Positions 2,931 to 64,000 of a DNA stretch of 64,000 bases are shown one piece after another (the first letter of the stretch is position 1; every line of letters begins with the position of its first letter). The stretch is from positions 983 through 64,982 of IMG/VR virus record IMGVR_UViG_2846920067_000004; one strand, 5' to 3'. The position numbers and the translations under genes were made by a program. The stretch is from a virus (lineage: Duplodnaviria > Caudoviricetes). The notes beneath the pieces were generated by a model. It was given only the letters and a program-made list of their open reading frames with translations. It made no database searches and was not told the origin of the DNA.

Positions 2931-4946
2931 TCATGCGGCGATCCTTCGGCGTTGTTTCATCTCGTCGCTGCTCCAGGCCATCAGGTCGCGGCAGTTGGCT
3001 GCGATCAGCGCGGCGGCCGGCTTTGGCGGGACGCTGTTGCCAACCATCCGCACCTGGGCCGATTTGCTGAATGGCCGCCCGTCGTGGCCGCGGTCGATGA
3101 TGTAGTCGGCCGGGAATGACTGGCAGCCATACAGCTCGGCCGGTTTAAGCATGCGCAACTTGATGTCGACGATCACCCACGGTTCGCCGCGGATCCAGAC
3201 CGTGACCAGCGCCAGCCGGTCGCGGGTGGTGGCGGTTGGCATCGGCTGGTCCAGGCCGCTGACGTTGTCGGTGCCGTAGTAGCTGATCAGGAACGCGGCC
3301 ACCCGCAGCGCGCCAGCTTCGTCCTCCTGGCTCAGTTGGTAGGACACGAGCGCATGGTGCTCGGCGCTGGCGGTGGCAGTCGGCATGGGCTCGGTCATGT
3401 CTCGGCCAATGCAGTTGCGGCGCAGGGTGGCTAGGTGGGTCGTTACCAATTGCTGCTGGCTGCCGGTGGTCGTGATCGTGGTGGCCGGCTCGTCCAGGCC
3501 CCGGCCGACTGTCTCGTTGAAGCCGCCGTTCGCCTGCATCATGTAAGCGGTGGCGACGTGGCGATGGTTCTCCTTCAGGATGGTGCCGAGCGGCTGGTCC
3601 ACGGCGACGGGCTTGCCGCTGTAGCTGGGGCCGCCGGCGCCGACGAGGATCGCCGAAGCCAGGCCATGCTTGCGGCCGCCGGCGACCACGGTGCCCAGCG
3701 GCTTGTCGATGTCGAGCGAGCGCGGCGACTGCCCTTCCCTCTCGCCGTAGCCCAGCTGCACCATGGTGGCGGCCGCCAGCAACTGGTTCCCCGCAGTGGT
3801 GATAGTCGGCGCGGGCGCATCGGCGCTGCGTGCAGGGTTCCCCGTGGTATTCGGCACGATGATGGCGGAAGCGACGGCGATTTCTCCGCGGTGCGCAGCC
3901 GTTATCGTCGGCGCCGGTTGCTGAGGACCGTAGACGCGGTCTCCGCCCTGGTGAGTCAGCGGCACAAGAGCCGGGCTGGCCACTGCCATGCTGCCGCCGC
4001 GCGGCCAGGCGGTGATGGTGCGCAGCGGATCAGCCGTGGACTGCACGCCGTTGGTGTTGGACCAGTTGGCCAGCTCCACGATGAATGGCGTAGCGCTGTC
4101 CAGGACGAACTTCTTCATGCCCTTGGCGACGCGGCGCATGGTGGCGTCCGCCAGCGGTTTCTTGCGGTCGAAAATCGACTGGCCCAGGTCGCTGAAATCG
4201 ATGTGATCAGCTGCTGGCCGCCACTTCTTTTGCCCGGCTGCCGGCTTCTCGAAGTGCGTCGGCGCCGGCCACTCAATCGGGCGTCCGTCGCGGCGGGCGA
4301 GCAGATAGAGCCGTTCGCGGGTGGTGGCCGCGCCATAGTCCGCTGCGACCAGCGTCCGGTGTTCCACGTCGTAGCCCAGCTTGCGCAGCACGCTCAGGAA
4401 CCGGCGCCAGGTGCGGCCGATGTGCTTCGGGTCCGGAACGAGAAACTGCTCTTGCACGGGCACGCGCTCGCCAGGCTCTGCCACACTACCGTCCAGCCGC
4501 ATCACACGGCCCGTCTTCTTGCAGCGCTTGGCGATCAGCGGCCCCCACTGCCGCATTTGTTTCACGTTTTCCATGCTGATGCTGCGCGGCTTGACCTGGC
4601 CGGCCCAGCGTGGAATGACCCAACCCAGCGAGCGAATGGCTTTGTCCCGCGGCTGGCCGCCGACGGCCTGGCTGAAATGGGTGCAGTCCGGAGAGCCGTG
4701 TAGGTGGCCGACCGGCCGCCCTTGGCAGGCCTCGCGCGGGTCAACTTCAAACACGTCGCAGCAGTAATGCTGCGTCTGCGGATGGTTCGCCATGTGCATG
4801 CTGATGGCGTCCATGTCGTGGTTGATGGCGATGTCGACGTGGCGGCCCAGGGCCTCCTCAATGGCGCTGGACATGCCGCCGCCACCGGCAAACAGATCCA
4901 CTATGATTTCATCGGTGGTGAGAAGGGAAAACTGGTCGCGGATCAT
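2931..4946 (-). CDS. Orphan phage C5-cytosine DNA methyltransferase
   Basis: Motif I DLFAGGGG, catalytic SPDC, ENV, RERL and C-terminal GNSV; no cognate endonuclease nearby. Confidence 0.93.
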   Translation of the reverse strand: MIRDQFSLLTTDEIIVDLFAGGGGMSSAIEEALGRHVDIAINHDMDAISMHMANHPQTQHYCCDVFEVDPREACQGRPVGHLHGSPDCTHFSQAVGGQPRDKAIRSLGWVIPRWAGQVKPRSISMENVKQMRQWGPLIAKRCKKTGRVMRLDGSVAEPGERVPVQEQFLVPDPKHIGRTWRRFLSVLRKLGYDVEHRTLVAADYGAATTRERLYLLARRDGRPIEWPAPTHFEKPAAGQKKWRPAADHIDFSDLGQSIFDRKKPLADATMRRVAKGMKKFVLDSATPFIVELANWSNTNGVQSTADPLRTITAWPRGGSMAVASPALVPLTHQGGDRVYGPQQPAPTITAAHRGEIAVASAIIVPNTTGNPARSADAPAPTITTAGNQLLAAATMVQLGYGEREGQSPRSLDIDKPLGTVVAGGRKHGLASAILVGAGGPSYSGKPVAVDQPLGTILKENHRHVATAYMMQANGGFNETVGRGLDEPATTITTTGSQQQLVTTHLATLRRNCIGRDMTEPMPTATASAEHHALVSYQLSQEDEAGALRVAAFLISYYGTDNVSGLDQPMPTATTRDRLALVTVWIRGEPWVIVDIKLRMLKPAELYGCQSFPADYIIDRGHDGRPFSKSAQVRMVGNSVPPKPAAALIAANCRDLMAWSSDEMKQRRRIAA

Positions 4947-5125
4947 TTGATTTCCTTGCACGTCTTGCAGCGCCACACGCTCCCGGCGCCGCTGGGTGTC
5001 GTCACATACGCGCCGCCGGCCAGATGACGGCGCCGCTCACAGCCGCTGCATATCCGATACAGGCTCATGCGTGCCTCCATGAAAAAAGGCCCGTATGGGC
5101 CTGGTTGTTTGGTGCTGCCGGCGCG

Positions 5126-12771: not shown

Positions 12772-13050
12772 CCAGGGTGCAACCCGTCATCTCTGGCGGT
12801 TGCATACCAAACTTCCGCCGCCCCAACAATGCCGCCTCTCTCGAAGCGGCCTTCTACTTCACTCCCCCGTTACTCGCCACGGTGGGTTTGGCGCTTGCGT
12901 TGTCATTGGTCCGCTCCTTGCGAACCTCTTACGCGGCATGCAGGTGCTTCTGCATGACTTGGCCATCGCTTCCTCAGGTCTGAGACCTGACAGGGGTGCC
13001 GTGCTGCGCGCCTGGGCTGTGCCGTATCGCTGCTGGTTGTTAGAGATCGG

Positions 13051-13133
13051 TGCGAAAGTTTCGCTGTGTGTTGAACAAACTTTAACTCTCAGCGAAATGT
13101 TGCACAAGGTTTATTTCGCTTGATGTGAAATTT
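13051..13133 (-). promoter_or_regulatory. PL promoter with OL operators
   Basis: TTGTGC-17-TAAAGT on the minus strand; (T/A)GCGAAA..TT(C/T)GC palindromes; 13-bp AAACTTTAACTCT shared in inverted form with PR. Confidence 0.8.
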
Positions 13134-13277
13134 GTGGGTGAAAGTGCAACAGATGGCGAATCGTTTCGTGTGGGGATGGGGCGTAAAATGCCAATGTCAC
13201 AAGATGGGGTGGGTTTTGTCCGGCTATTCCGTGCAAAGATAATTGCGCTTGGAAGTACTACTACTGGAGCGAAGCGT

Positions 13278-13776
13278 ATGAGAGTTGTAGGGCTGGTTTT
13301 GTTGGTGATCTCGCTGTGCGTGCAGGGTATGGTTTGTCTTACCAGACGTTTGTATACGCTCCCAGCGGCGATGCCGTGAACAACTACGGCTTAATGCACA
13401 ACCAATCTTTGATACTAGGTGGCGCAGGGGTTGCGTTTCTGGCAGCTTGATCATGTTTGGCTTCGCCCAACTGGAAGAGGCAAAGACAGGCGCGCAAGTA
13501 CTAACACCATTTACTCTAGCCGTTAGTTGTATCAAGGCGAACGATACGGCGGGCTTCTTGGCCGCATTGCGGAGGCCAGATCTCCATCTGGATTCAACTG
13601 ATGATATTGGCATGACACTTTTACATCATGCAGCTGCGAGGCAGAACTATGAGGCCGTAAAGGCTTTGATTGAAAGGCACGCAAGGAAAGACCTGGCTGA
13701 TTACAAAGAAAAATTAGCTATCGAATACACTGATGAAACACTGGAAGGCTTAAAGATTCGAGAGTTGTTGAAATGA
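13278..13776 (+). CDS. Membrane-anchored ankyrin-repeat protein (two frameshifts)
   Basis: Two hydrophobic segments, then GMTLLHHAAARQNYEAVKALIERHA ankyrin consensus. Confidence 0.65.
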
Positions 13777-13801
13777 AAAAAACAGAAGCTGGAGTGAAGC
13801 A

Positions 13802-14353
13802 ATGCTGAAGTATGGAGTAGCAATCACAGTGTTTGCCATGGCGGCGCGGGCTGCATCTGCGGTCTCCGCGGTTCCTGCCTACGATGGTTCCCTTAAGTGC
13901 GAGTCGAGCACTGTAGATGATCTATGGATGGATCACCGTCTTGGTTGCCTCAAGGTAGGTCAACAATTTGTTTTTTCATCTGCGAGTGGGGCTGGACAGT
14001 CAGTACAAGGCAAGGCCTTTACCATTAACCAGAAACTGACCACTAGCGATTGGGTTGCCCTGAATGGAAAGGTAAGGTACTTCCAGCACTTCTTATGCAT
14101 CAGAAACATGCCTTCTGGCGTTGCGGGTTGGCAAATCGCAGGCGATATTGGCCAGGCGACCAAGAGCACCGGCTCCATTTTTAAAGTTCCGGGGATCGTT
14201 CACTCATCGACCGAACAGTCCGGCGGGAAAGAAGTCGGGCCTTGCGACCCCGCAAAGCATCCGGTGATAGTCGACTACAACACCGGAAAGATCGAGTCGG
14301 TGAACCCGGAAGCGTTGAAGGCCATCAACGTGTACGATCTGCCGGCGAACTGA
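13802..14353 (+). CDS. Secreted/periplasmic hypothetical protein
   Basis: Signal peptide ending in AxA-type site; four Cys. Confidence 0.7.
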   Translation: MLKYGVAITVFAMAARAASAVSAVPAYDGSLKCESSTVDDLWMDHRLGCLKVGQQFVFSSASGAGQSVQGKAFTINQKLTTSDWVALNGKVRYFQHFLCIRNMPSGVAGWQIAGDIGQATKSTGSIFKVPGIVHSSTEQSGGKEVGPCDPAKHPVIVDYNTGKIESVNPEALKAINVYDLPAN

Positions 14354-14408
14354 GGCAGGTGGCAGTAGGCCTGGCGATGATGCGGAAAAATCACAGGAGG
14401 GAAGGGTA

Positions 14409-14603
14409 ATGATGGGTTCTTTCTCTATTTGGCATTGGCTGATGTTCCTTGTGATGCTGGTCATCTTTCAGGTGCCTGCATGGTTGATCGTCCGGAAAGC
14501 TGGCTTCCCTGGCGTGTTGAGCATTGTCATGTGGGTGCCGGTACTGAACCTGCTGGCCTTGTGGGTGTTCGCGATGGTGCCCTGGCCTGCAACTCGAAAA
14601 TAG
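14409..14603 (+). CDS. Small membrane protein
   Basis: MGSFSIWHWL...KAGFPG...VPVLNLLALWVFAMVPWP, two hydrophobic segments. Confidence 0.75.
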   Translation: MMGSFSIWHWLMFLVMLVIFQVPAWLIVRKAGFPGVLSIVMWVPVLNLLALWVFAMVPWPATRK

Positions 14604-14640
14604 TGCCGATCTACGCAGCCGAAATTGAAAAGGGGATGGA

Positions 14641-14982
14641 ATGACACGCTATAGCAAGCGCGTAGGTGACGGCGTCACCGCCCACTACAACTCCGCCGAG
14701 GAGCTGCAGAGGGCCAATGATCGCGAGTTCGAATCAAAGGTGCGCGGCTTTGGGCTGCTGGTGGGCCTGGTCGGCGGTGGTTGGCTGACCTGGTCGGCGA
14801 TCATGTCGCATGGCGGCGCCGAGTGGCCAAAGTTCCTGCGGCTGCTGGCCACCCTGGTCGGTGCCGCGGTGAGCGGCGGCGCGCTCTACTTCCTGAGCAT
14901 GTACATCGTGCTCGCGATGTTTGTCGCAGTGGTTGGCTGGTTGATCTGGGGCGGGATGAAGTGGCTTTGGAGTGCGGTCTAG
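14641..14982 (+). CDS. Membrane protein (about three TM segments)
   Basis: Hydrophobic C-terminal two-thirds; GGGGA RBS. Confidence 0.7.
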   Translation: MTRYSKRVGDGVTAHYNSAEELQRANDREFESKVRGFGLLVGLVGGGWLTWSAIMSHGGAEWPKFLRLLATLVGAAVSGGALYFLSMYIVLAMFVAVVGWLIWGGMKWLWSAV

Positions 14983-15264
14983 GGGGCGTACATGAAGCAG
15001 CGCCTGCTCGCTTCACTCTCACAGAGAGCCGTCATCGACACAAAGACCAAGCCTGACACCTCGCTGGTGTAGTGCTGAACTGTCTCCGCTGCTACGCGGA
15101 GATGGAAGTGCCGGATTGAGGCAAATGAGGCGCGCGCAAGCTACAGATCAGGCGCAAGTGCAACAATCACAACATCACAAGGCCTTCTGACGCAGTACAT
15201 TGGATGAAACTTTACGACTCGGCTATTATCAAATTCTTACGCATCAACTTCTACCGAGGGCAAC

Positions 15265-15462
15265 ATGACAACCAGGTTTGCAGATGCATTTCAGGCCATG
15301 GTCAAAGCCCTGTCTGAAAGCAATCAGAATATTTCAAAAGCGGCTCAAGATGCCGCTCATGAAATGACTGTCCGCAGGGAAGAGTTTGATAAGCGCCGAG
15401 CTGAAATCGAAAAGGATATTAAGCGTGGCGCAAGACTCACAGACCATAAAATCTCTCTTTGA
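15265..15462 (+). CDS. Small helical protein overlapping the downstream gene
   Basis: 65 aa, GAGGG RBS, low GC. Confidence 0.6.
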   Translation: MTTRFADAFQAMVKALSESNQNISKAAQDAAHEMTVRREEFDKRRAEIEKDIKRGARLTDHKISL

Positions 15463-16237
15463 TTACCTTTACATAGATCGAGACAGGCTGTCTTCCTATA
15501 GTGCTCAGCTATTTGAGTACGGCTCACTAACCTCAATAAAGTCAACGGAGGGGGTGAATAAAAAATTCGGCTCTCATCTTGAAGGCGGCATTCCCAAAAT
15601 ACTGAATAGTCGCCTCTCTGAAGATGCATCAACAAATGAAAGCCTCGAAAGAAGCTTTGATGCCGCATGGTCGTTGCCTTTGAATGTAATCAACGCGCTT
15701 GACCAACACGGACTTGTAAATAGAGATATATCAAGCACCAACTATGGCCAGCTTGTATTGATTAAAGGCGCAATACAGTTATTAGACCTTTCCATGCTTC
15801 AAAACATGTGGGATGGCATCGCAAAGATGATGGTTAATGAGCTTCCCACTGCTACATCTGCACAAAAGAAAGCTAAGCAGGAAGCAGAGAAAGAAGCCAA
15901 GGATATGGCCTCAGTTATTTCTAAGCTTCCACACACGCTTCAATTTAAGGTGTTCAATGACGAAGCAATGGTCTGGTCTACCCTAAAGCCGGAACATATG
16001 ATTATAAATCCGTTTGATTTTGCAATGAAACACGGTGCAACAATAAGCGGGGAGTGGTTCGCACTTGGCATAGTGGACGCCAAGCCCTCTGATATTGAAG
16101 ATTTTGATAAAATAGCAACATCAAATGAATTAGAGAAGGGCCTTCTTTTTATGCTTAGTCAATTACGATCTGTAATGGGCCGTAGCCTTGGAGACTATGG
16201 AATTACTCCTGTCGCAGTCTTCAGAGAGATTAAGTAA
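15425..16237 (+). CDS. Conserved prophage cargo protein (DUF6414-like)
   Basis: GTG start; DYLYIDRDRLSSYSAQL N-terminus and YGITPVAVFREI C-terminus; low GC. Confidence 0.65.
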   Translation: MAQDSQTIKSLFDYLYIDRDRLSSYSAQLFEYGSLTSIKSTEGVNKKFGSHLEGGIPKILNSRLSEDASTNESLERSFDAAWSLPLNVINALDQHGLVNRDISSTNYGQLVLIKGAIQLLDLSMLQNMWDGIAKMMVNELPTATSAQKKAKQEAEKEAKDMASVISKLPHTLQFKVFNDEAMVWSTLKPEHMIINPFDFAMKHGATISGEWFALGIVDAKPSDIEDFDKIATSNELEKGLLFMLSQLRSVMGRSLGDYGITPVAVFREIK

Positions 16238-16358
16238 GCACTACTCCATCTCGGCGGTTTTTTCTTCGCCTTGACCCAGCCGGCCTCCACCGGCAGACTC
16301 ACCTCAAGCCCAGGCTGAGCCCACCCGTTCAGATAAAAACACCTGACGCCCACAGACC

Positions 16359-16382
16359 AGCCCGCACACGCGGGCTTTTTTG
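16359..16382 (+). terminator. Intrinsic terminator upstream of xre-luxR
   Basis: AGCCCGCACACGCGGGCTTTTTT. Confidence 0.75.
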
Positions 16383-16451
16383 CGTCCGAGTGTGACGTAA
16401 TACCATCTCTGCATGATGCCATGACATCTCTGCCGTAATCGACAATGCGGC

Positions 16452-16787
16452 ATGAATGTAAGAGGTGATCGAATCAGGGCCGAGCGCCGGCGCCGCGGCT
16501 GGCGGCAGGAAGATCTTGGCCGACGGGCCGGCTGTAGTCGGTCGATAGTCGCCGACCTGGAGAATGGCCGCAATCGCGAGTCCACGAAGTTGCCGAGCAT
16601 CGCGCGGGCGCTGGGGGTTTCGCTGACGTGGCTGGAGACGGGGAAGGGGCGCAAGACGCCGCTGGCGAGCACGGAGGCACCGTACGTCTCTGCAGATACG
16701 CTGGAGGATGTAGCTGAGCAGATGCTGAGCAAAGGGCCGGATGAGGTCTGGCGACTTGTTCAGCTGCTGCTGACCACCGCACGCTGA
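16452..16787 (+). CDS. XRE-family HTH regulator, probably co-transcribed with luxR
   Basis: GDRIRAERRRRGWRQEDLGRRAGCSRSIVADLENG...IARALGVSLTWLETG; possibly leaderless (GACAAT at 16441). Confidence 0.9.
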   Translation: MNVRGDRIRAERRRRGWRQEDLGRRAGCSRSIVADLENGRNRESTKLPSIARALGVSLTWLETGKGRKTPLASTEAPYVSADTLEDVAEQMLSKGPDEVWRLVQLLLTTAR

Positions 16788-16850
16788 GAAATCGGCGGCG
16801 CGGTTTTCTGCGTCGTGAAAATGTCCTACCTTGAATAGACAGGGGGACTC

Positions 16851-17603
16851 ATGGCGACAGCTATCGATCAGCTGCCGGAAGTGGCAGCAATTTCCAAAAA
16901 CAGAATCAATGCGGCGATCTGCGCCGCTGCAGCGCTGCGCAGTATGTTGGTGCGCGCCAGGACGCGCGATGACCTTGATGCGGCCCTGGCGTTGATCTGC
17001 ACGATCGCTGGCGGGGCACCGACGCTGCTGGCGACATTCTACGGCACCAAGGTGCCATCGCTGTACATCAACCACGGCTGGTCTGAGGATTGGTTGCAGC
17101 GATATGTAGAGCGCGGGTACGTGAAAGTTGACCCCGTGGTAAGAGGGCTCGCCGGCGCGCCGGTTGTTTGGTCCGAGCGGCTGTATGCGCCGGGCCTGAC
17201 GCCGGCCCAACGCAAGTTCGTCGTGGATTGCGAGCATCACAAGTTGACGCACGGCCTGACCTATATCGCGGACAAAGGCGCCGGCGTTCGATACGTGCTG
17301 TCGATGATTGGCCGCCAGGTGGAAGATGACCGGGCCCTGCGCGATTTGCTCGAAATGCTACTTCCCGACCTGGCCGAAGTGGCGCATAGGGTTTTTGCTT
17401 CAAACGCTCGGATTGCGAAAACAAGCAAGATTCAACAGTCTGTGATCGAACTGTATTGTAAGAAAGGCTTTAAACGGCTCGAGGTGGCAGCCGCCCTTGG
17501 CAAGAGCGTCTTTACCATTGATTACCATGTTGGGCGGCTTATGGAGACGTATGAAGCGGCTACCGTTGAGCAGCTCATGTACAAGATCGGGGCATGCGAA
17601 TAG
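16851..17603 (+). CDS. luxR: LuxR-family regulator with AHL autoinducer-binding domain (LuxR solo)
   Basis: W..RY...GY..VDPVV...PVVWS...HG pocket residues; C-terminal LuxR HTH (GFKRLEVAAALGKSVFTIDYH); no luxI in the window. Confidence 0.88.
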   Translation: MATAIDQLPEVAAISKNRINAAICAAAALRSMLVRARTRDDLDAALALICTIAGGAPTLLATFYGTKVPSLYINHGWSEDWLQRYVERGYVKVDPVVRGLAGAPVVWSERLYAPGLTPAQRKFVVDCEHHKLTHGLTYIADKGAGVRYVLSMIGRQVEDDRALRDLLEMLLPDLAEVAHRVFASNARIAKTSKIQQSVIELYCKKGFKRLEVAAALGKSVFTIDYHVGRLMETYEAATVEQLMYKIGACE

Positions 17604-17679
17604 CGCATGAACTTTAAATCACGTGTTGAAGAATACGTATTTTTACTGTGTACAGATTTTCTTACTATTTCTCGTAATG

Positions 17680-17697
17680 ACCTGACAGATGTCAGGT
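17680..17697. promoter_or_regulatory. lux/tra-box-like 18-bp palindrome
   Basis: ACCTGACA-GA-TGTCAGGT, between luxR and the small ORF. Confidence 0.65.
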
Positions 17698-17724
17698 GGG
17701 ACAATGTGGCCACAAAACAAGAAG

Positions 17725-17740
17725 ATGTCAGTAGTGACAT
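17725..17740. promoter_or_regulatory. Second palindrome (candidate XRE operator) over the small-ORF promoter
   Basis: ATGTCA-GTAG-TGACAT, followed by a TATGAT -10-like hexamer at 17753. Confidence 0.5.
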
Positions 17741-17782
17741 ATGACAGACGGCTATGATTGAGCACCTGAAACGGAGTTAGGA

Positions 17783-17980
17783 ATGCAGAGCAATTGCAAT
17801 ACCGCTCATGCGCCATGCGTGCATGCGGCAAACTGTCATCACCACAGAGCTGGTTTCGACGCGCGCGGGCCGGTTGTCGCTGAAGTGGCGCTCAGGCGTT
17901 ACAAGGACGGCACGCTGGAGTTCGTGCGGTTTGGGGATGTGAGTAGTTTAGATTTGACACAGGCCAGATTTGCGGCCTAA
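17783..17980 (+). CDS. Small ORF (65 aa), candidate antirepressor
   Basis: GGAG/AGGA RBS; Cys/His-rich N-terminus; converges on cI. Confidence 0.6.
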   Translation: MQSNCNTAHAPCVHAANCHHHRAGFDARGPVVAEVALRRYKDGTLEFVRFGDVSSLDLTQARFAA

Positions 17981-18015
17981 GGAGTAGTGTAGGGCGACAG
18001 TAGAGCAGGGCGACA

Positions 18016-18402
18016 TCAGTCGCCCTTTTTGTTTTCCTGCTCCATGAAGGCCTTGCGGAGCAGTTCGAACGCGTAGGCTTCGCCCTTTTCGCGCAGGAGT
18101 TTCACGAGCTCATCTTCAGACTGAGCGGTAATCACGACCTGCTCTGGCACCGGCGCCGGCGCTTGTTCAGTATCGTGGCTCCTGTCCATCCAGCCGTATT
18201 CCAGGCCTTCCGCCTCTTCAATCCGCCGCGCCATATCGTCCCCCATCCGGCGCGAATTGGGATTCTTCTTGTCTAGAGTCTTCAGCGTAGAGAGGTAGGA
18301 GGCTGAGGAACCCACCTTTTCAGCTATGCGCGCAGCAGATCCCCTCGGCTCCAAAAGCCGCGCAAGATTCGCACGCCGTATATCAAAAACATCGATTCCC
18401 AT
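18016..18402 (-). CDS. cI: CI-like prophage repressor without S24 peptidase domain
   Basis: IRRANLARL...SYLS...RRMGDDMARRIEEAEGLEYGWMD signature; divergent from PR; TATTAT 6 nt upstream suggests leaderless mRNA. Confidence 0.85.
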   Translation of the reverse strand: MGIDVFDIRRANLARLLEPRGSAARIAEKVGSSASYLSTLKTLDKKNPNSRRMGDDMARRIEEAEGLEYGWMDRSHDTEQAPAPVPEQVVITAQSEDELVKLLREKGEAYAFELLRKAFMEQENKKGD

Positions 18403-18413
18403 GCCCGAATAAT

Positions 18414-18499
18414 AAGAATTTTTCGCACCACGTGAAATAAACGCAGTGCGAAACAAGTACGCATGGCCTTGCGAAAAGTTTTGCACAGAGTTAAAGTTT
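18414..18499 (+). promoter_or_regulatory. PR promoter with OR operators
   Basis: TTGCGA-17-TAAAGT (18469-18497); repeated TGCGAAA..(C/T)GCA sites; AGAGTTAAAGTTT mirrored at PL. Confidence 0.8.
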
Positions 18500-18685
18500 T
18501 GAGCGGGGGATTGCATACATCATCTCCGTTTCGAAGTGCCCAGTTGTCAAAGAACACCCGCATCGCGCTCCAAGGTGGCAGCCGGTCGAGGCGCTGCAGC
18601 GGGTCTGGCTTGGTGCTGAGTGAAGTATGGCAAAGGGCTAACCCATTGAGAATGATCATTTTTCGAGTTTCTGTAAGGCAAACAC

Positions 18686-18967
18686 ATGTTCGCAGAGATC
18701 GACTTGGCGATTTTCGCCACCGTGGATGAATACCTGACCCGTACCGGCCGCAACATGCGCCAGCTGTCGGAGGACATGGGGATCAATTACAACTCGTTCC
18801 GCCGCAAGGTGAATCGGGACAAGGCCTCCCCCCATCCACAGCATTTCACCCCGCAAGAGCTTATCCGGCTGATCAAGATCACCGGCGATTGCCGCGTCCT
18901 GCGTTTCATCAACGCCGAGTGCGACAGACATCTGAGCCAGGTAGCCAAGATCGCGGAGGCCGCCTGA
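18686..18967 (+). CDS. CII-like phage regulatory protein
   Basis: QLSEDMGINYNSFRRKVN...HFTPQELIRLIKITGD HTH pattern; first gene after PR. Confidence 0.7.
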   Translation: MFAEIDLAIFATVDEYLTRTGRNMRQLSEDMGINYNSFRRKVNRDKASPHPQHFTPQELIRLIKITGDCRVLRFINAECDRHLSQVAKIAEAA

Positions 18968-19479
18968 TGGCGGATCTGAGCGAGCAGGTGCACTTCAGCA
19001 GCAAAACGGATGAATGGCCGACGCCGCAGGCGCTGTTCGACCAGTTGCACGCTGAGTTCGGGTTCACGCTGGACGTCTGCGCGACGGCTGAGAACGCCAA
19101 GTGCGAACGGTTTTTCACGCGCGAGCAGGATGGCCTGGCCCAGGACTGGAGCCAGGACGTCGTCTGGATGAATCCGCCGTTCGGCCACCAGATCAAGTTG
19201 TGGATGGCCAAGGCGTACCGCTCCAGCATCGACGGCGCGCTGGTGGTCTGCCTGGTGCCGGCGCGGACGGACACCCGCTGGTTCCACCGCCACGCGCTGA
19301 AAGCCGCAGAGATCCGCGCGCTGGACAAGCGGCTGAGGTTCGATGGGGCAAAGGCGAAGGCGCCATTCCCGGCCGTGCTGGTGGTCTACAAACCGGGCGA
19401 GAACGGGCAGTGCAAGTTGAGCGCGTACAAGGTGCCGGGCGCCGGCGGCCGGGCGCACGAGATCAAGGGAGGGGAGTGA
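18967..19479 (+). CDS. Phage DNA N6-adenine methyltransferase
   Basis: DEWPTPQ, FTLDVCA, WMNPPF, LVPARTDTRWF, APFP motifs. Confidence 0.92.
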   Translation: MADLSEQVHFSSKTDEWPTPQALFDQLHAEFGFTLDVCATAENAKCERFFTREQDGLAQDWSQDVVWMNPPFGHQIKLWMAKAYRSSIDGALVVCLVPARTDTRWFHRHALKAAEIRALDKRLRFDGAKAKAPFPAVLVVYKPGENGQCKLSAYKVPGAGGRAHEIKGGE

Positions 19480-21009: not shown

Positions 21010-21672
21010 ATGAAACCCGCTCATCAGCAAATCCTGGAGGCTGTGATTGTCACTGCCGAGTTGACCGGGACCGACCTGTCTGCCGCAGCGCAAGAGGTAA
21101 TGGTGGACGATCTCATGGCGTACCCGCTGGAGCCCGTTTTGCAAGCGTTAACCCGCTGCCGCAAAGAGCTGACTGGCCGACTGTCCATCGCGGCCATTCT
21201 GGACCGCCTGAATGACGGTCGCCCTGGCGCGGAAGAGGCGTGGGGTGCAGTCGCCAAGGCGCTGACTGACGAATTGGAAACCATAGTCTGGACTGAAGAG
21301 ATGGCGCTGGCATCGGCGCCGGCGCGTGAACTGCTCCGGCTTGGTGACAAGATTGGAGCACGCATGGCTTTCCGCGAGTCATACGAGTCCCTGGTCGCCG
21401 AAGCAAGGGCCTGCAAAAAGCCTCTCCGCTGGGATGTCAGCGGAGGCGAGGATAGAGAGCGCCGTGCTGCAGCCATTATGCGTGCTGTTGAGCAGGGGCG
21501 GCTGCCGTCGCGTCGAGCAGAGGTAATGCTCCCTCTGCAGGCGAGTGATGAGCGGCATTTGTTGCGGACTGGTGCGGTCATGACGCCAGAGGAGCGCAGG
21601 CTTGGCCGCGAGAATGTGCGCAAGCTGCTGGCCATGATCCCAGAAAAACGCTTTAACGAGGATGCTGCATGA
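21010..21672 (+). CDS. Replication protein (P-like / helicase-loader position)
   Basis: ALTRCRKE...DGRPGAEEAW...TIVWTEEMA...ARMAFRESY; follows the initiator. Confidence 0.7.
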   Translation: MKPAHQQILEAVIVTAELTGTDLSAAAQEVMVDDLMAYPLEPVLQALTRCRKELTGRLSIAAILDRLNDGRPGAEEAWGAVAKALTDELETIVWTEEMALASAPARELLRLGDKIGARMAFRESYESLVAEARACKKPLRWDVSGGEDRERRAAAIMRAVEQGRLPSRRAEVMLPLQASDERHLLRTGAVMTPEERRLGRENVRKLLAMIPEKRFNEDAA

Positions 21673-22105
21673 GCCGGGAAACGCTCACCATCCAGACCGG
21701 CGCCGATCTCCGGCCGCGCATGGCCCGCGCATACCAGCTGGCGTGCAAGATGCTGGACGAGGCCGCCGACGGCAGGGGCCTGAAGGTCACGATCCAATCC
21801 GCCAGCATCCGCAACCTGAGCCAGAACGCCGCTATGTGGGCCGCGCTGACGGACATCAGCGAGCAACTGGACTGGTACGGCAACAAGCTGACACCGGAGG
21901 AGTGGAAAGACCTGCTGACTGCCAGTCTGCGCCGGACAAAGGTGGTGCCGAACATCGACGGCAGCGGCTTCGTGATCCTGGGCCAGCGCACCAGCGACAT
22001 GAGCATCCGCGAAATGGGCGAATTGCTGGAGCTGATCCATGCGTTCGGCGCGGAGAAGGGCGTGAAATTTGGGCTGGGCCAGCGTACGGGAGGAAGGCTG
22101 CATGA
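21669..22105 (+). CDS. ninB: NinB-family recombination protein
   Basis: RNLSQNAAMWAALTDISEQ...EEWKDL...GQRTSDMS...ELIHAFGAEKGVKF. Confidence 0.9.
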
Positions 22106-22199
22106 CCGATCACCAACGGGCTATGGCTGTAGTGCTGCTGACCGCGGTCATGAGCGTGGCCGGCGCCTGGGCGCTGGGCCTCGCGTGCTGGGGCGGGCT

Positions 22200-22586
22200 A
22201 TGAGCACAGCAACCCCATCAAAAGTTGTGCCGCGCCCCGGCTCCACGCCCGGCACTGGCCGGTGCGACACTGGGCGCATCACCAGCAAGGCCATCCGCGA
22301 CAGCGCCGCGGGCGAGGTCTGCACGCTGCAGATTGCCGGCATCTGCAATGGCAGCACCGACACCACTGTCCTTTGCCATCTACCTGATGAGAGCCACGGC
22401 ATGGCGCGCAAGGCGGACGACGTTTCCAGCTGCTACGGCTGCAGCGCCTGCCATGACGCCATCGACGGCCGCGCGCCGCACGCCTGGCAGCCGGGCGAGA
22501 AGGATTTCTACATGCGCCGCGGGATGGTGCGCACCTGGCGCCGGCTGCTGGCCAAGGGCTTGATCACGATAAAGGGTGCGGCATGA
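22200..22586 (+). CDS. DUF1364/YbcO-like Zn-binding nuclease-fold protein
   Basis: CTLQIAGIC..TTVLCH...GMARKADD...GCSACHDAIDGR. Confidence 0.85.
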   Translation: MSTATPSKVVPRPGSTPGTGRCDTGRITSKAIRDSAAGEVCTLQIAGICNGSTDTTVLCHLPDESHGMARKADDVSSCYGCSACHDAIDGRAPHAWQPGEKDFYMRRGMVRTWRRLLAKGLITIKGAA

Positions 22587-59315: not shown

Positions 59316-60572
59316 TTATCCTACAGTCAGCAACTCATCCAGCCGCGTTGTATAGCACGACGAGCGCAGATCTTGTCGCATGTGCCAGTCCGCAGTCAGT
59401 TGCTCGGCGGCGGTGCGCAGCGTGCCGCGCCCCCAGTCTCTGTTGATCTTGTCCATGGTGGCCATCAACCGCTCGCGGCGCGGGTCTGGCGGTGCGGCGA
59501 ACAGATCCGACTGCTGCACTCTTTCGTCGCCGATTTCCATCAACATGATGCCGGCTTTGTGATAGCGGAAGCCCGGTCGGTAGACGTGGCGCAGGCCGGC
59601 CAGCGCCGCCCTGGTGATCAGCAGCGTGTCGTTGCTGGGCTGAACAAGTGGCACGACGATATAGGGCCGGTATTGTGGCGTGTCGGCAAACGGGCTGGTC
59701 ATGATCTGTACTGCTACCAGCTTGGCCACGCTGCGCTGCTGGCGAAGCTTCTCAGCGCCGCGGGCGGCATGGTGAGCAACAGAAGCAGCCAGGGTGGCCA
59801 GGTCGGTGACTTTTTCGCTGAACGAGCGCGATGCGATGATCTGTTGCTTCGTCGGCGCCACGTCCTCCAGCACCAGACATGACACGCCGTTCAGTTCCTG
59901 CACCGTTCGCTCCACCACGACCGAAAACTGCCGCTTGATCCGCCGCGGATCAGCCCGCTTCAGGTCCAGTGCGGTGGTGATGCCCATCGCACCGAGTTTT
60001 TCAGTCAGCCGGCCGCCGATGCCCCAGATGTCGCCAACAGGCATTTGCCCCATCAGCGTGTCAGCCTCGGCCTCACTCAGCCAGTCCCATGCGAACACGC
60101 CGCCCCATTCTGGCCGCTTCTTCGCCACTCGGTTGGCGAGCTTTGCCAGGGTTTTCGATGTGCCGAACCCGACGCATGTCGGGATGCCGACCCGCTGCAG
60201 CACAGCTTGCCGGATGCGATGACCGTGGCTGTCCAGATCCGACATGCCATCCATCGCCAGGAAGCATTCGTCGATGGAATAGACCTCTTGGCCCGCGGCG
60301 AACTCGGACAGCACGCGCATCATGCGGTTGCTCATATCACCGTAGAGCGCGTAGTTCGAACTGAATACCGCCACCTTGTGCCGCCGGCAGAGCCCGGCGA
60401 TCTCGAAGAATGGCCCGAACATTTTCAGGCCCAAAGCCTTGGCCTCGGCGCTGGCGGCCACCACGCAGCCGTCGTTGTTGCTCAGCACCACGATGGGCCT
60501 GCCGGCGAGGTCGGGCCGGAACACCCGCTCACAGGACGCATAGAAGGTGTTGCCGTCGACCAGGGCGAACAT
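59316..60572 (-). CDS. umuC: Y-family translesion polymerase UmuC
   Basis: [35 protein letters not shown]. Confidence 0.96.
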
Positions 60573-60997
60573 CAGCGGAACCGTTTCACGCAGCCGCGCA
60601 CCACGCCCCATATCTCCAGTTCCTGGCCATCGGCCAGCTGGATAGGAGGGTAGGCCGGGTTCTCGGCGATCAGCGCGCAGCGACCGCGCATGCGGTGCAG
60701 ACGCTTGACGGTGAACTCGCCGTCGAGCACAGCGATCACTATGTCCCCATGGTTTGCCGTCAGCCCCTTATCCACGACCAGCAGGTCGCCGGCGGCAATG
60801 CCGGCGCCGATCATGGAGTCGCCGCGCACACGGACGATGAACGTCGCAGGCGGGTCGGTCACGAGATAGTCGTGCAGGTTGATGTTGTCGTCGAGGTAGT
60901 CGTCGGCGGGCGATGGAAAACCGGCCCGCACAGGCGACAACACGAGAGGCAGCGGCTGACCGCCTGGCTGGGGTGTCAGATACGGAATGGGATACAT
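60572..60997 (-). CDS. umuD: UmuD (S24 peptidase)
   Basis: [10 protein letters not shown] cleavage site, GDSM, TVKRL. Confidence 0.95.
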
Positions 60998-61008
60998 AGC
61001 CGTCTACA

Positions 61009-61026
61009 TGAATTTGTACAAATTCA
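61009..61026. promoter_or_regulatory. Perfect 18-bp palindrome upstream of umuD
   Basis: TGAATTTGTACAAATTCA, 11 bp from the umuD start. Confidence 0.7.
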
Positions 61027-62830: not shown

Positions 62831-64000
62831 CTATTGGGCATCGAAAAAGTCAGCCCAGTCTTGGAGGAGCTTGCGTCGTTCCTCAAGATATAGTGCGTGG
62901 TTATATGCAGCTCTGACCGTGTTGCCATCGGTATGTGCCAGTGCGCGCTCGATCACTTCAGTGCGATAGCCTTGCTCGTGTAGGATGGTTGAGGCTGTAC
63001 CACGGAAGCCATGACCAGATATGCATCCTTTAAAGCCGATATTGTGAATGACACTATTCACTGTGGAGGCACTCATGGGACGATCATAGTCCCGCGTGTT
63101 CGGGAAAACATAACGCTCCCGACCAGACAAGTCCTGCAATCCCCTCAGAATGACAACCGCCTGCCTAGGCAGTGGAACAATGTGGTTTTCACCATTTTTC
63201 ATCTTCGAGCCGGGGATGCGCCACTCTGCACGATCAAGATCAAGCTCAGGCCACTCCATGAATCTGACTTCGATAGTCCTGGCCATGGTGTAAATCAGCA
63301 AGTACACCGCTTGTTTTGAGAGCCCAAGGCCTTTGTAACCGGCCAACGCGCGCCTGAAAGACCCAAGTCGATTGACTGGAAGTGTGGCGGTGTGTTGAGT
63401 CGGGGCTGACTTGATTGCTCCCTTTAGGGATGCCGCCGGGTTCATCTCAATTCGCAGGGTGACGATAGCATATTCCATGATTGCGGAAATTCGCTGCCGA
63501 ATTTGCTTGGCAGTTTCTGGCGACCCGCGCTCCTCAATTTCTCTCAGCCGGCCCAAAATCATTGCTGGAGAGATCATCGAAATGGGCAGCTCGCCAAAAA
63601 ATGGCAATATGTCCTTATCAAGATTCCTGCGCACCGTTGAGACAGTGCTTCGTTTCCAGTGGGGCGCATGCGATGAATACCACTCATCAGCCACCACTGA
63701 AAAAGTGTTCTGGTGTGCTTGTATATTGATTAGCTTGTCAGCGGCCTTCTTTGCATTAGGATCTATGCCTTTTGCCACGCTTTCGCGTGCATCTTCAAGC
63801 AGCCGGCGAGCGTCTGATAGTGAGACAAAGGGATATTCACCAATGGTGAGCATGGACTGCTTCCCGCCATGCCGGTAGCTGTAGCGCCAGAACTTCGAAC
63901 CGGTCGGTCGAACCTCAAGGCAAAGGCCACGCCCATCGGAGAGGCGATATGGCTTTTCGGACGGTTTTGCCGTCCTGATTTTGACGTCAGTAAGAGGCAT
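62831..64000 (-). CDS. int: P4-like tyrosine integrase
   Basis: MPLTDVKIRTAKP..YRLSDGRGL arm domain; R, K, HGFR, LAH, AAYN catalytic motifs. Confidence 0.97.
   Translation of the reverse strand: MPLTDVKIRTAKPSEKPYRLSDGRGLCLEVRPTGSKFWRYSYRHGGKQSMLTIGEYPFVSLSDARRLLEDARESVAKGIDPNAKKAADKLINIQAHQNTFSVVADEWYSSHAPHWKRSTVSTVRRNLDKDILPFFGELPISMISPAMILGRLREIEERGSPETAKQIRQRISAIMEYAIVTLRIEMNPAASLKGAIKSAPTQHTATLPVNRLGSFRRALAGYKGLGLSKQAVYLLIYTMARTIEVRFMEWPELDLDRAEWRIPGSKMKNGENHIVPLPRQAVVILRGLQDLSGRERYVFPNTRDYDRPMSASTVNSVIHNIGFKGCISGHGFRGTASTILHEQGYRTEVIERALAHTDGNTVRAAYNHALYLEERRKLLQDWADFFDAQ

Follow-up and report, generated by a model that had tools for sequence, protein, structure and literature searches.

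The DNA analyzed here, referred to as the window, is a 64,000-nucleotide stretch covering positions 983-64982 of the 64,982-base IMG/VR record IMGVR_UViG_2846920067_000004, which is classed as a provirus. It contains a portable sensory cassette, which lies in the immunity region of a lambdoid prophage integrated in Chromobacterium. Three plus-strand genes make up the cassette: xre (16452-16787; 111 residues), encoding a helix-turn-helix (HTH) protein with an HTH_3 domain (E 3.1e-11); luxR (16851-17603; 250 residues), which follows after a gap of 63 nt and encodes a receptor with an Autoind_bind domain; and a small open reading frame (ORF) of 65 residues (17783-17980), a family-less candidate antirepressor gene. 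The 179-nt spacer between luxR and the small ORF (17604-17782, plus strand) serves as the presumptive control region of the latter. It includes a perfect 18-bp dyad (dyad 1, 17680-17697), which is a candidate LuxR box with XRE as an alternative binder, and a second dyad, ATGTCA-GTAG-TGACAT (dyad 2, 17725-17740). A hairpin with a T-run, identified by terminator scanning at 18007-18026 on the plus strand, terminates the small ORF and overlaps the 3′ end of the short repressor gene cI (18016-18402, minus strand; 128 residues), on which the small ORF converges. An initial annotation made from the nucleotide sequence alone had listed xre, luxR, both palindromes, the 65-residue ORF, and cI, and all were recovered at the positions given above.

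The left edge of the cassette lies roughly at an intrinsic terminator (16359-16376, plus strand; terminator scan) that closes the upstream DUF6414 unit. Homology to four related loci is strong rightwards from about 16359-16376 and breaks down leftwards. Among the five loci compared (the window and these four relatives), the sequence at 16380-16451 is almost invariant. Two 20-nt direct repeats, 21 nt apart, were found just upstream of xre (16393-16433, plus strand; repeat search) and are a candidate operator or promoter of an xre-luxR operon. The pN/pS ratio (nonsynonymous to synonymous polymorphism) is 0.05-0.21 for xre and 0.07-0.13 for luxR, with synonymous divergence of luxR reaching 0.58.

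Linkage of the small ORF to luxR and to the repressor tail

The small ORF is open in all five loci, with an in-frame pN/pS of 0.09. Stop codons occur in all five other reading frames, of which four have a pN/pS above 1 and one a value of 0.25. Judged by these substitution patterns, the small ORF is a real gene under purifying selection. Its product has no family match in Pfam, PHROG, NCBIfam, or the PDB, and an Atlas search gave nothing usable. A profile search of 1.84 billion representatives returned nine matches at E≤0.001; three are short proteins aligned over most of the profile, and the other six (289-1851 residues, with 4-7 matching stretches each) were set aside as low-complexity. AlphaFold modelled the protein with a pLDDT (predicted local distance difference test) score of 69, both ends being disordered and a beta-hairpin at residues 33-51 scoring about 90. 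The disordered N-terminus is rich in cysteine and histidine. Its C-x-H-x3-C-H motif is retained in the window type, P0005, P0008, and the L022 type, and is absent from P0006 and from the L007, L023, L031, and L032 types. A zinc-finger reading was set aside, as the motif is missing in several types and that stretch is disordered in the model.

Lone homologues of the small ORF were also observed in two other elements, at L031:7232-7444 (70 residues) and L032:7096-7287 (63 residues), directly upstream of genes for a primase and a DUF927 helicase. The primase has zinc-ribbon, DUF7146, and Toprim domains, and the elements also bear KilA-N, HTH_39, and AlpA. This context is satellite-like, and the homologue may mark a helper-derepressing factor. 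In the satellite P4, the site upstream of the primase gene is occupied by the antirepressor epsilon.

Linkage between luxR and the small ORF extends to every viral locus recovered. In the four close IMG/VR relatives (L002-L005), which have XRE, LuxR, and small proteins 95-97%, 87-97%, and 95-100% identical to those of the window, the small ORF lies downstream of luxR on the same strand, as it does in the window. A LuxR profile retrieved 13 IMG/VR loci; the nine beyond L002-L005 all carry an ORF of the small-ORF family downstream on the same strand (hmmsearch E 1e-31 to 6e-3), with gaps of about 105-180 nt in the measured spacers of these further loci. This brings the total to 14 of 14 viral loci, a count that includes several near-duplicates (L045 and L050 appear to be the same elements as L022 and L023). 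Among 20 Chromobacterium species genomes, eight have LuxR-profile matches at E≤1e-25. At E≤1e-60 there are eight luxR places in five genomes, seven of them with a small-ORF match 148-235 nt downstream, and three weaker LuxR matches (about 1e-30) have no small-ORF match downstream.

The repressor gene on which the cassette converges encodes a protein that matches the PHROG transcriptional repressor family phrog_12107 (E 4.8e-16). It has no Pfam match and thus lacks an S24 peptidase domain. Its start was taken as 18402 rather than 18516, which would give a longer ORF, because all relatives begin at the matching residue and because sigma-70-like promoter hexamers lie right upstream of the former (18436-18409, minus strand; TTCACG-16-TATTAT, 9 of 12 consensus matches in a promoter scan, a consensus match only). 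In the AlphaFold model (pLDDT 76.7), an HTH domain (residues 1-73) is joined by a floppy linker to a long C-terminal helix (residues 96-126). The last 40 codons (18019-18138) form a tail that is nearly invariant over seven loci, with a pooled pS of 0.282 and pN of 0.018, which indicates constraint at the protein level and not recent copying. The N-terminal domain (residues 5-84) matches Rep of the SPC32H Rep-Ant complex (PDB 5D50_A; profile E 1.1e-8). The 64 kb contain no LexA box of the form CTGT-N8-ACAG, in a search restricted to exact matches to a motif that may not be that of the genus. From these comparisons, the repressor is predicted to be non-cleavable and to belong to the antirepressor-controlled Rep-type class; the absence of a peptidase domain and the homology to Rep bear out the earlier proposal of a non-cleavable CI.

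Comparison of relatives indicates that the parts of the locus are exchanged. The cI genes beside the cassette in L002-L005 are only 58-66% identical to that of the window; the differences are restricted to the HTH domain, of which there are three types, and the same cassette is joined to each. A second cassette type, seen in L016 and in L007 (whose proteins are identical to those of L018), has an xre that is 40% identical and an unrelated 107-residue HTH gene in place of luxR. Its small-ORF homologue, 37-53% identical, converges on the same cI tail, and this luxR-less cassette is joined to two of the same cI HTH types. Two further variants occur in genome G001, which is linked to L018. In one, xre is 50% and luxR 44% identical and the small ORF faces an XRE-like repressor; in the other (L023), luxR is 32% identical, xre is absent, and the small ORF faces a Rep-like repressor. 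All of these repressors and XREs share a C-terminal motif (helix, K/Q/R-G, helix), which is also borne by repressors beside more distant small-ORF homologues. The constant pair is thus the small ORF and the repressor tail, and both the sensor and the repressor HTH domain are swappable. The initial annotation had suggested examining synteny in related prophages, and the module is conserved beside cI in relatives, including L002-L005. On sequence grounds, the cassette is real, conserved, and probably a functional sensory unit.

These observations bear on whether the cassette acts on the repressor at all. It could instead be a lysogenic-conversion or anti-quorum-sensing module unrelated to cI, with the small protein serving as an anti-activator of host CviR, an exclusion factor, or a toxin, and with its adjacency to cI reflecting a recombination hot spot. 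Phage small proteins that target LuxR-type receptors do exist, for example Aqs1, which targets LasR (available text of PMC13043044); the adjoining 13-16 kb is low-GC accessory DNA, and the small protein has no recognisable family. However, a small ORF without luxR still converges on the same cI tail, the tail is co-conserved at the protein level across recombinants, its motif occurs in every repressor found beside a small-ORF homologue, and the position is fixed in all examined loci. We therefore think an unrelated module distinctly unlikely.

The polylysogen G001 combines three such cassettes, each with its own repressor: xre-luxR-small ORF (L022), luxR-small ORF (L023), and xre-other HTH-small ORF (L018). 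It thus has three distinct sensors and one common output type. A DarT/NADAR defence pair (L023:8494-9827), the latter being a DarT1-associated antitoxin, adjoins the luxR-small ORF cassette of that prophage.

The receptor and the control region of the small ORF

LuxR is predicted to be an acyl-homoserine lactone (AHL) receptor-type regulator, a distant paralogue of the host receptor CviR with a divergent C-terminal HTH, and to bind AHLs. The Autoind_bind domain (PF03472) matches residues 66-179 (E 1e-15), and the best solved relative is CviR (PDB 3QP5; phmmer E 7.6e-13, residues 73-233 aligned to 76-239). Ligand-pocket residues were compared in an alignment of seven prophage LuxRs, a CviR-type protein, and the LuxR of Aeromonas phage ARM81ld. 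Hydrogen-bond contacts of CviR are made by Y80, W84, D97, and S155 (available text of PMC6132053). Window residues W81, Y85, D94-P95, W107, G135, and S151 match CviR W84, Y88, D97-P98, W111, G138, and S155, which are identical in all seven prophage LuxRs despite mutual identities of 32-97%. This alignment agrees with the initial annotation, which had noted the pocket residues W, Y, DP, W, and G. At the position of CviR Y80, the window protein has W77, and tryptophan is found in all seven.

The C-terminal domain is less clear-cut. The domain searches suggested by the initial annotation were positive for Autoind_bind and negative for GerE (PF00196), which does not match the LuxR C-terminus of the window at E≤0.1 in the Pfam search. 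GerE is weak (E 0.014) in the other xre-linked LuxR, whereas L023, which lacks xre, has a LuxR with a clear match (E 3.7e-9). In the window protein, the HTH is covered by the phmmer alignment to CviR, which extends to LuxR residue 233, and contains a 2-residue deletion. Close relatives are rare: a collection of 5.8 billion proteins yielded three at E≤0.001, from Chromobacterium violaceum (97%), C. piscinae (90%), and a third source (62%). There were no LuxR matches in a tblastn search of 50,697 phage records at E≤1e-3, a pattern scan of genome contigs, or a profile scan of metagenomes.

The phage has no AHL synthase of its own. No luxI was found in the provirus record by a search that detects luxI in four of four Chromobacterium genomes, so the absence first noted for the window holds for the whole record. 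All four Chromobacterium genomes with small-ORF homologues have luxI elsewhere, and one of these, G009, bears this cassette.

The most conserved stretch of the cassette is at 17641-17782, where mean pairwise divergence is 0.030 compared to 0.222 in the 37 nt after the luxR stop (17604-17640) and 0.063 in the small ORF. A 45-residue ORF at 17607-17744 was rejected as the cause of this conservation, given that its ATG is ATA in L005. Dyad 1, ACCTGACAGATGTCAGGT, reads ACCTGACA-GA-TGTCAGGT. It is invariant in all five loci and unique in the 64 kb within three mismatches (0.01 expected); a dyad with 8-nt arms arose in 55 of 5000 shuffles of the 179-nt spacer. In dyad 2, only spacer positions 17732 and 17734 vary among the five loci, and the arms never do. 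A 17-nt direct repeat, AGATGTCAG-N4-GACA (one copy at 17687-17703), joins the right arm of dyad 1 to dyad 2.

A lux-type box is a 20-bp dyad, ACCTG-N10-CAGGT, with its centre near -42.5, the class II position. The label of lux box given to dyad 1 in the initial annotation is therefore only partly apt: the dyad and its palindromic ends hold, and the ends are spaced as ACCTG-N8-CAGGT (18 bp) rather than N10. The label is further weakened by a misfit to the consensus of host CviR, CTGNCCNNNNGGNCAG (available text of PMC12114271). Two candidate binders were rejected. Host CviR was set aside because dyad 1 does not fit CTGNCCNNNNGGNCAG in register. The repressor cI was excluded because the dyad varies with the cassette and not with the cI HTH type: it is identical across the three HTH types and differs in L007, even though the L007 cI is 94% identical to that of the window.

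The spacing of the dyads suggests a promoter. In all eight luxR-only loci, the dyad centre lies exactly 31.5 nt before a TATAGT hexamer, despite three different dyad sequences (TAGAC-N4-GTCTA, TAGACG-AA-CGTCTA, TTAGC-N6-GCTAA); if TATAGT is the -10 element, these dyads lie near -43. The two xre-linked types have no TATAGT. They have weak hexamers, namely GAAGAT at +32.5 from the dyad centre in the window (17721-17726) and GAAAAT at +30 in L045, which would fit a promoter that needs more help from XRE or is gated by it. Dyad 2 would overlap the predicted -10 element and start site of the window promoter, with the start near 17733.

One further palindrome was observed in these regions. The 8-bp sequence ATACGTAT occurs in the control regions of both the window (17633-17640) and L007 (about 4648-4655), on opposite sides of the 18-bp dyad in the luxR and luxR-less cassettes. 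This may be chance.

A predicted switch and its alternatives

Taken together, these features are consistent with a switch in which AHL-bound LuxR turns on a small antirepressor aimed at the tail of cI, a reading that we regard as slightly better than an even bet. The phage LuxR, with its AHL pocket intact, would bind AHL made by the LuxI-type synthase of the host, since the phage itself has no synthase. Liganded LuxR would then act at dyad 1, the centre of which is about 44 nt upstream of the predicted start, and activate the 65-residue gene. XRE would gate or assist this activation, probably through dyad 2. The small beta-hairpin protein would end repression by binding the short, non-cleavable cI at its conserved C-terminal helix, and the prophage would enter the lytic cycle. 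AHL-driven induction had been proposed in the initial annotation. It is supported in part: conservation, linkage, co-conservation of the cI tail, integration, and a non-cleavable cI all accord with it, and the lux-box label fits dyad 1 only loosely.

Several results weigh against this reading, the first group of which concerns the promoter. The window promoter has no good -10 element at the expected place, and a sigma-70 scan found no plus-strand promoter. DNA binding by LuxR alone appears uncertain, because GerE is unmatched at E≤0.1 and the HTH has a 2-residue deletion. In addition, the luxR-less L007 has a like-built 18-bp dyad, ATGCGACA-GG-TGTCGCAT, at 103 nt from the small ORF compared to 94.5 nt in the window. 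A dyad without luxR points to the shared XRE, or to the second regulator of each cassette, and not specifically to LuxR. It is thus conceivable, though we consider it unlikely, that XRE is the DNA-binding regulator at both dyads and that LuxR is a ligand-sensing partner acting by contact, with a vestigial HTH; dyad 1 would then be an XRE operator and not a lux box. This would account for the gradient in GerE detection, from undetectable in the window through weak in the other xre-linked LuxR to clear where xre is absent. It would also account for the retention of xre with a like-built dyad in the luxR-less cassette and for the repeat that joins the two dyads. There is precedent in Aeromonas phage Apop, where activity of the small-ORF promoter PsmORF needs both XRE and LuxR (available text of PMC10432266). 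By contrast, the ends of dyad 1, ACCTG and CAGGT, are those of lux-type boxes, the luxR-only relatives show the -43-type geometry without any XRE, and the LuxR C-terminus still aligns to the HTH of CviR and is under purifying selection.

The target of the small protein is a second point of weakness for AHL-driven derepression of cI. Two small-ORF types that are only 37-53% identical sit on the same cI tail, which makes specificity between the small protein and cI uncertain. The target could also be XRE, which bears the same tail motif: its C-terminal tail resembles that of cI in an alignment of the tails, and a profile comparison of XRE with cI gave E 1.5e-4 (probability 51%, 89 columns). Searched against the phage database, XRE returned 11 weak HTH matches only. 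With respect to the repressor class, the top Foldseek match of cI to Rep has an E of 2.3e-3, above the 0.001 line of the tool. A screen for a second antirepressor was limited in scope to 10 other ORFs.

The direction of the switch likewise cannot be assumed, because AHL signalling favours lysogeny in Phaeobacter prophages, in which LuxI and LuxR activate a lysogeny programme (Bunsick et al. 2026, available text). AHL-LuxR and the small protein might similarly promote lysogeny or immunity when cells are dense, for instance through stabilisation of cI oligomers or a block on a lytic regulator by the small protein, such that the prophage is held in when lysogens are abundant. The sequence does not fix the sign of the small protein's effect on cI, and the overlap of dyad 2 with the predicted start would suit a promoter that is mainly repressed. 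However, cI comes from a repressor class under antirepressor control. Lone small-ORF homologues lie by the primase in satellite-type elements, where derepression of a helper makes sense. Furthermore, the counting logic of the Phaeobacter prophages does not carry over: because it has no luxI, this phage cannot count lysogens apart from hosts. An opposite sign consequently seems improbable compared to induction by AHLs.

The predicted induction circuit can be compared with several known systems. The closest likeness is to the Aeromonas phages ARM81ld and Apop, which also have an xre-luxR operon by a small ORF in a temperate phage without luxI and a host that makes AHLs. In those modules, AHL-LuxR and XRE switch on the small ORF, and cI is inactivated without cleavage (available text of PMC10432266 and PMC6456758). 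Compared to ARM81ld, LuxR is 22% identical (E 1e-8, a generic family level), and XRE (E 0.17) and cI (E 0.44) show no similarity; on this basis, the cassette is analogous and not homologous to the Aeromonas module. The settings also differ. Here the host is betaproteobacterial and the phage is integrated and lambdoid, whereas the Aeromonas phages are linear and plasmid-like; the cassette is co-oriented, lies in the immunity region, and converges on cI, whereas the Aeromonas cassette lies by par and is counter-oriented; and cI is short and non-cleavable, whereas that of the Aeromonas phages is autoproteolytic. The three differences from the linear plasmid-like examples that had been anticipated (integration, co-oriented layout, and a non-cleavable cI) are all upheld. 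The arrangement itself is that of a transcription-factor gene beside a small ORF (TF-smORF) on a cI-bearing phage, as in Silpe et al. 2023; that survey, in its available text, covers only linear plasmid-like phages whose cI is autoproteolytic and predicts further systems beyond them (PMC10432266). No paper describing this Chromobacterium cassette was found by title or abstract, the supplementary lists of Silpe 2023 and Silpe & Bassler 2019 being outside the scope of that search.

Vibrio phage VP882 provides another precedent, VqmA-Qtip, in which the quorum-sensing receptor carried by the phage induces a small protein, and this protein inactivates cI. Its signal is DPO (3,5-dimethylpyrazin-2-ol), its receptor belongs to another family, and the phage is linear and plasmid-like. 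The N-terminal domain of cI is homologous to Rep of SPC32H Rep-Ant (PDB 5D50), and neither the cI tail nor the small protein matches anything in that structure. Repressors of the Rep type and of the Gifsy and 186 Tum systems are inactivated by small antirepressors and not by RecA-mediated cleavage (available text of PMC7380047). Those antirepressors are controlled by LexA; here, the upstream regulators are XRE and LuxR. CviR of Chromobacterium violaceum shares the two-domain layout and the ligand-contact residues of the phage LuxR, which nevertheless is only about 26% identical to the CviR-type protein of G001, has tryptophan for Y80 and the 2-residue HTH deletion, and would act at an ACCTG-N8-CAGGT site rather than at the CviR consensus. 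Prophages of Phaeobacter inhibens resemble the present case in being integrated, in having an AHL receptor that controls lysis-lysogeny, and in having exchangeable cassettes (bioRxiv 10.64898/2026.07.02.736140, available text). They differ in making their own AHL through luxI and in using the signal to promote lysogeny, and the terms smORF and antirepressor are absent from the available text (Bunsick et al. 2026).

To date, the pathway from a quorum-sensing receptor through a small antirepressor to lysis is established only for linear plasmid-like phages with a self-cleaving cI. If the predicted circuit is correct, the same logic arose independently, from unrelated proteins, in ordinary integrating lambdoid prophages, and the virus may time its escape by listening to host signals. 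The small protein may then be the main induction route, since the repressor cannot be cleaved. This reading points to the cI tail as a specific target domain, and the sensor is apparently swappable. For Chromobacterium, a standard model of AHL signalling, biosensor strains and cviI mutants are available. The circuit would bear on competition among prophages in polylysogens and on whether AHL analogues or quorum quenchers alter prophage induction.

A broader generalization, which is possible but on the doubtful side, is that Chromobacterium prophages and satellites share a plug-and-play switch. This would pair a beta-hairpin antirepressor with the helical tail of a non-cleavable repressor and couple them to interchangeable sensors (XRE with LuxR, LuxR alone, or XRE with another HTH protein). 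In that event, each integrated prophage of a polylysogen such as G001, with its three cassettes, would listen to its own cue. With a tail motif common to these repressors and to XRE, the antirepressor of one prophage would act on others in the same cell and also feed back on its own regulator. Satellites would carry a lone antirepressor to wake helper prophages, and among integrated lambdoid phages the LuxR versions would provide the first induction circuits triggered by AHLs.

Integration and the surrounding prophage

The prophage is integrated and is not a linear plasmid of the N15/VP882 type. A tyrosine integrase gene with Phage_int_M, Arm-DNA-bind_3, and Phage_integrase domains lies at the end of the provirus record (62831-64000, minus strand), and neither protelomerase (telN, PF16684) nor ParB_N (parB, PF02195) was found in the record. 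In genome G009, the same cassette is on a single 4.79-Mb contig, 42.7 kb from an integrase that is 47% identical. The integrase, the lack of telN and parB, and this chromosomal location confirm the integrating lifestyle that had been proposed. The remaining gene content is lambdoid: Ea22, a C5-methylase, a single-stranded DNA-binding protein, YqaJ, and RecT are encoded in the left arm of the record, and an O-like initiator, NinB-HNH, and finally umuDC with the integrase on the right side. A search of the phage database found no DNA match to 16300-18700.

To the right of cI, and divergent from it, is a gene for a cII/CP76-like early regulator (18686-18967, plus strand; PF06892, E 7e-11; phrog_101), which is followed by a Dam methylase gene (18967-19479; domain search). 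The prophage thus has two methylases, the other being a 681-residue C5-cytosine enzyme (2931-4976), in addition to the Dam-type N6-adenine enzyme. Conservation of Dam is 96-99% across the six close relatives, even with differing cI and cII, and 61% in L022, which is more distant. To the left of the cassette, a low-GC stretch at 13000-16240 (0.46-0.49 compared to about 0.6-0.65 elsewhere) carries accessory genes on the plus strand. These include a DUF6414/phrog_9699 protein (15386-16237) and several family-less ORFs.

Two minor features were observed further to the right. In a single 305-residue ORF (21669-22586), residues 31-135 match NinB/Orf and residues 203-303 an HNH endonuclease. Positions 61009-61026, a short distance upstream of umuD (minus strand, 60572-60997), form a perfect 18-bp palindrome, TGAATTTGTACAAATTCA, which is not of the CTGT-N8-ACAG form and may be an operator of the prophage umuDC.

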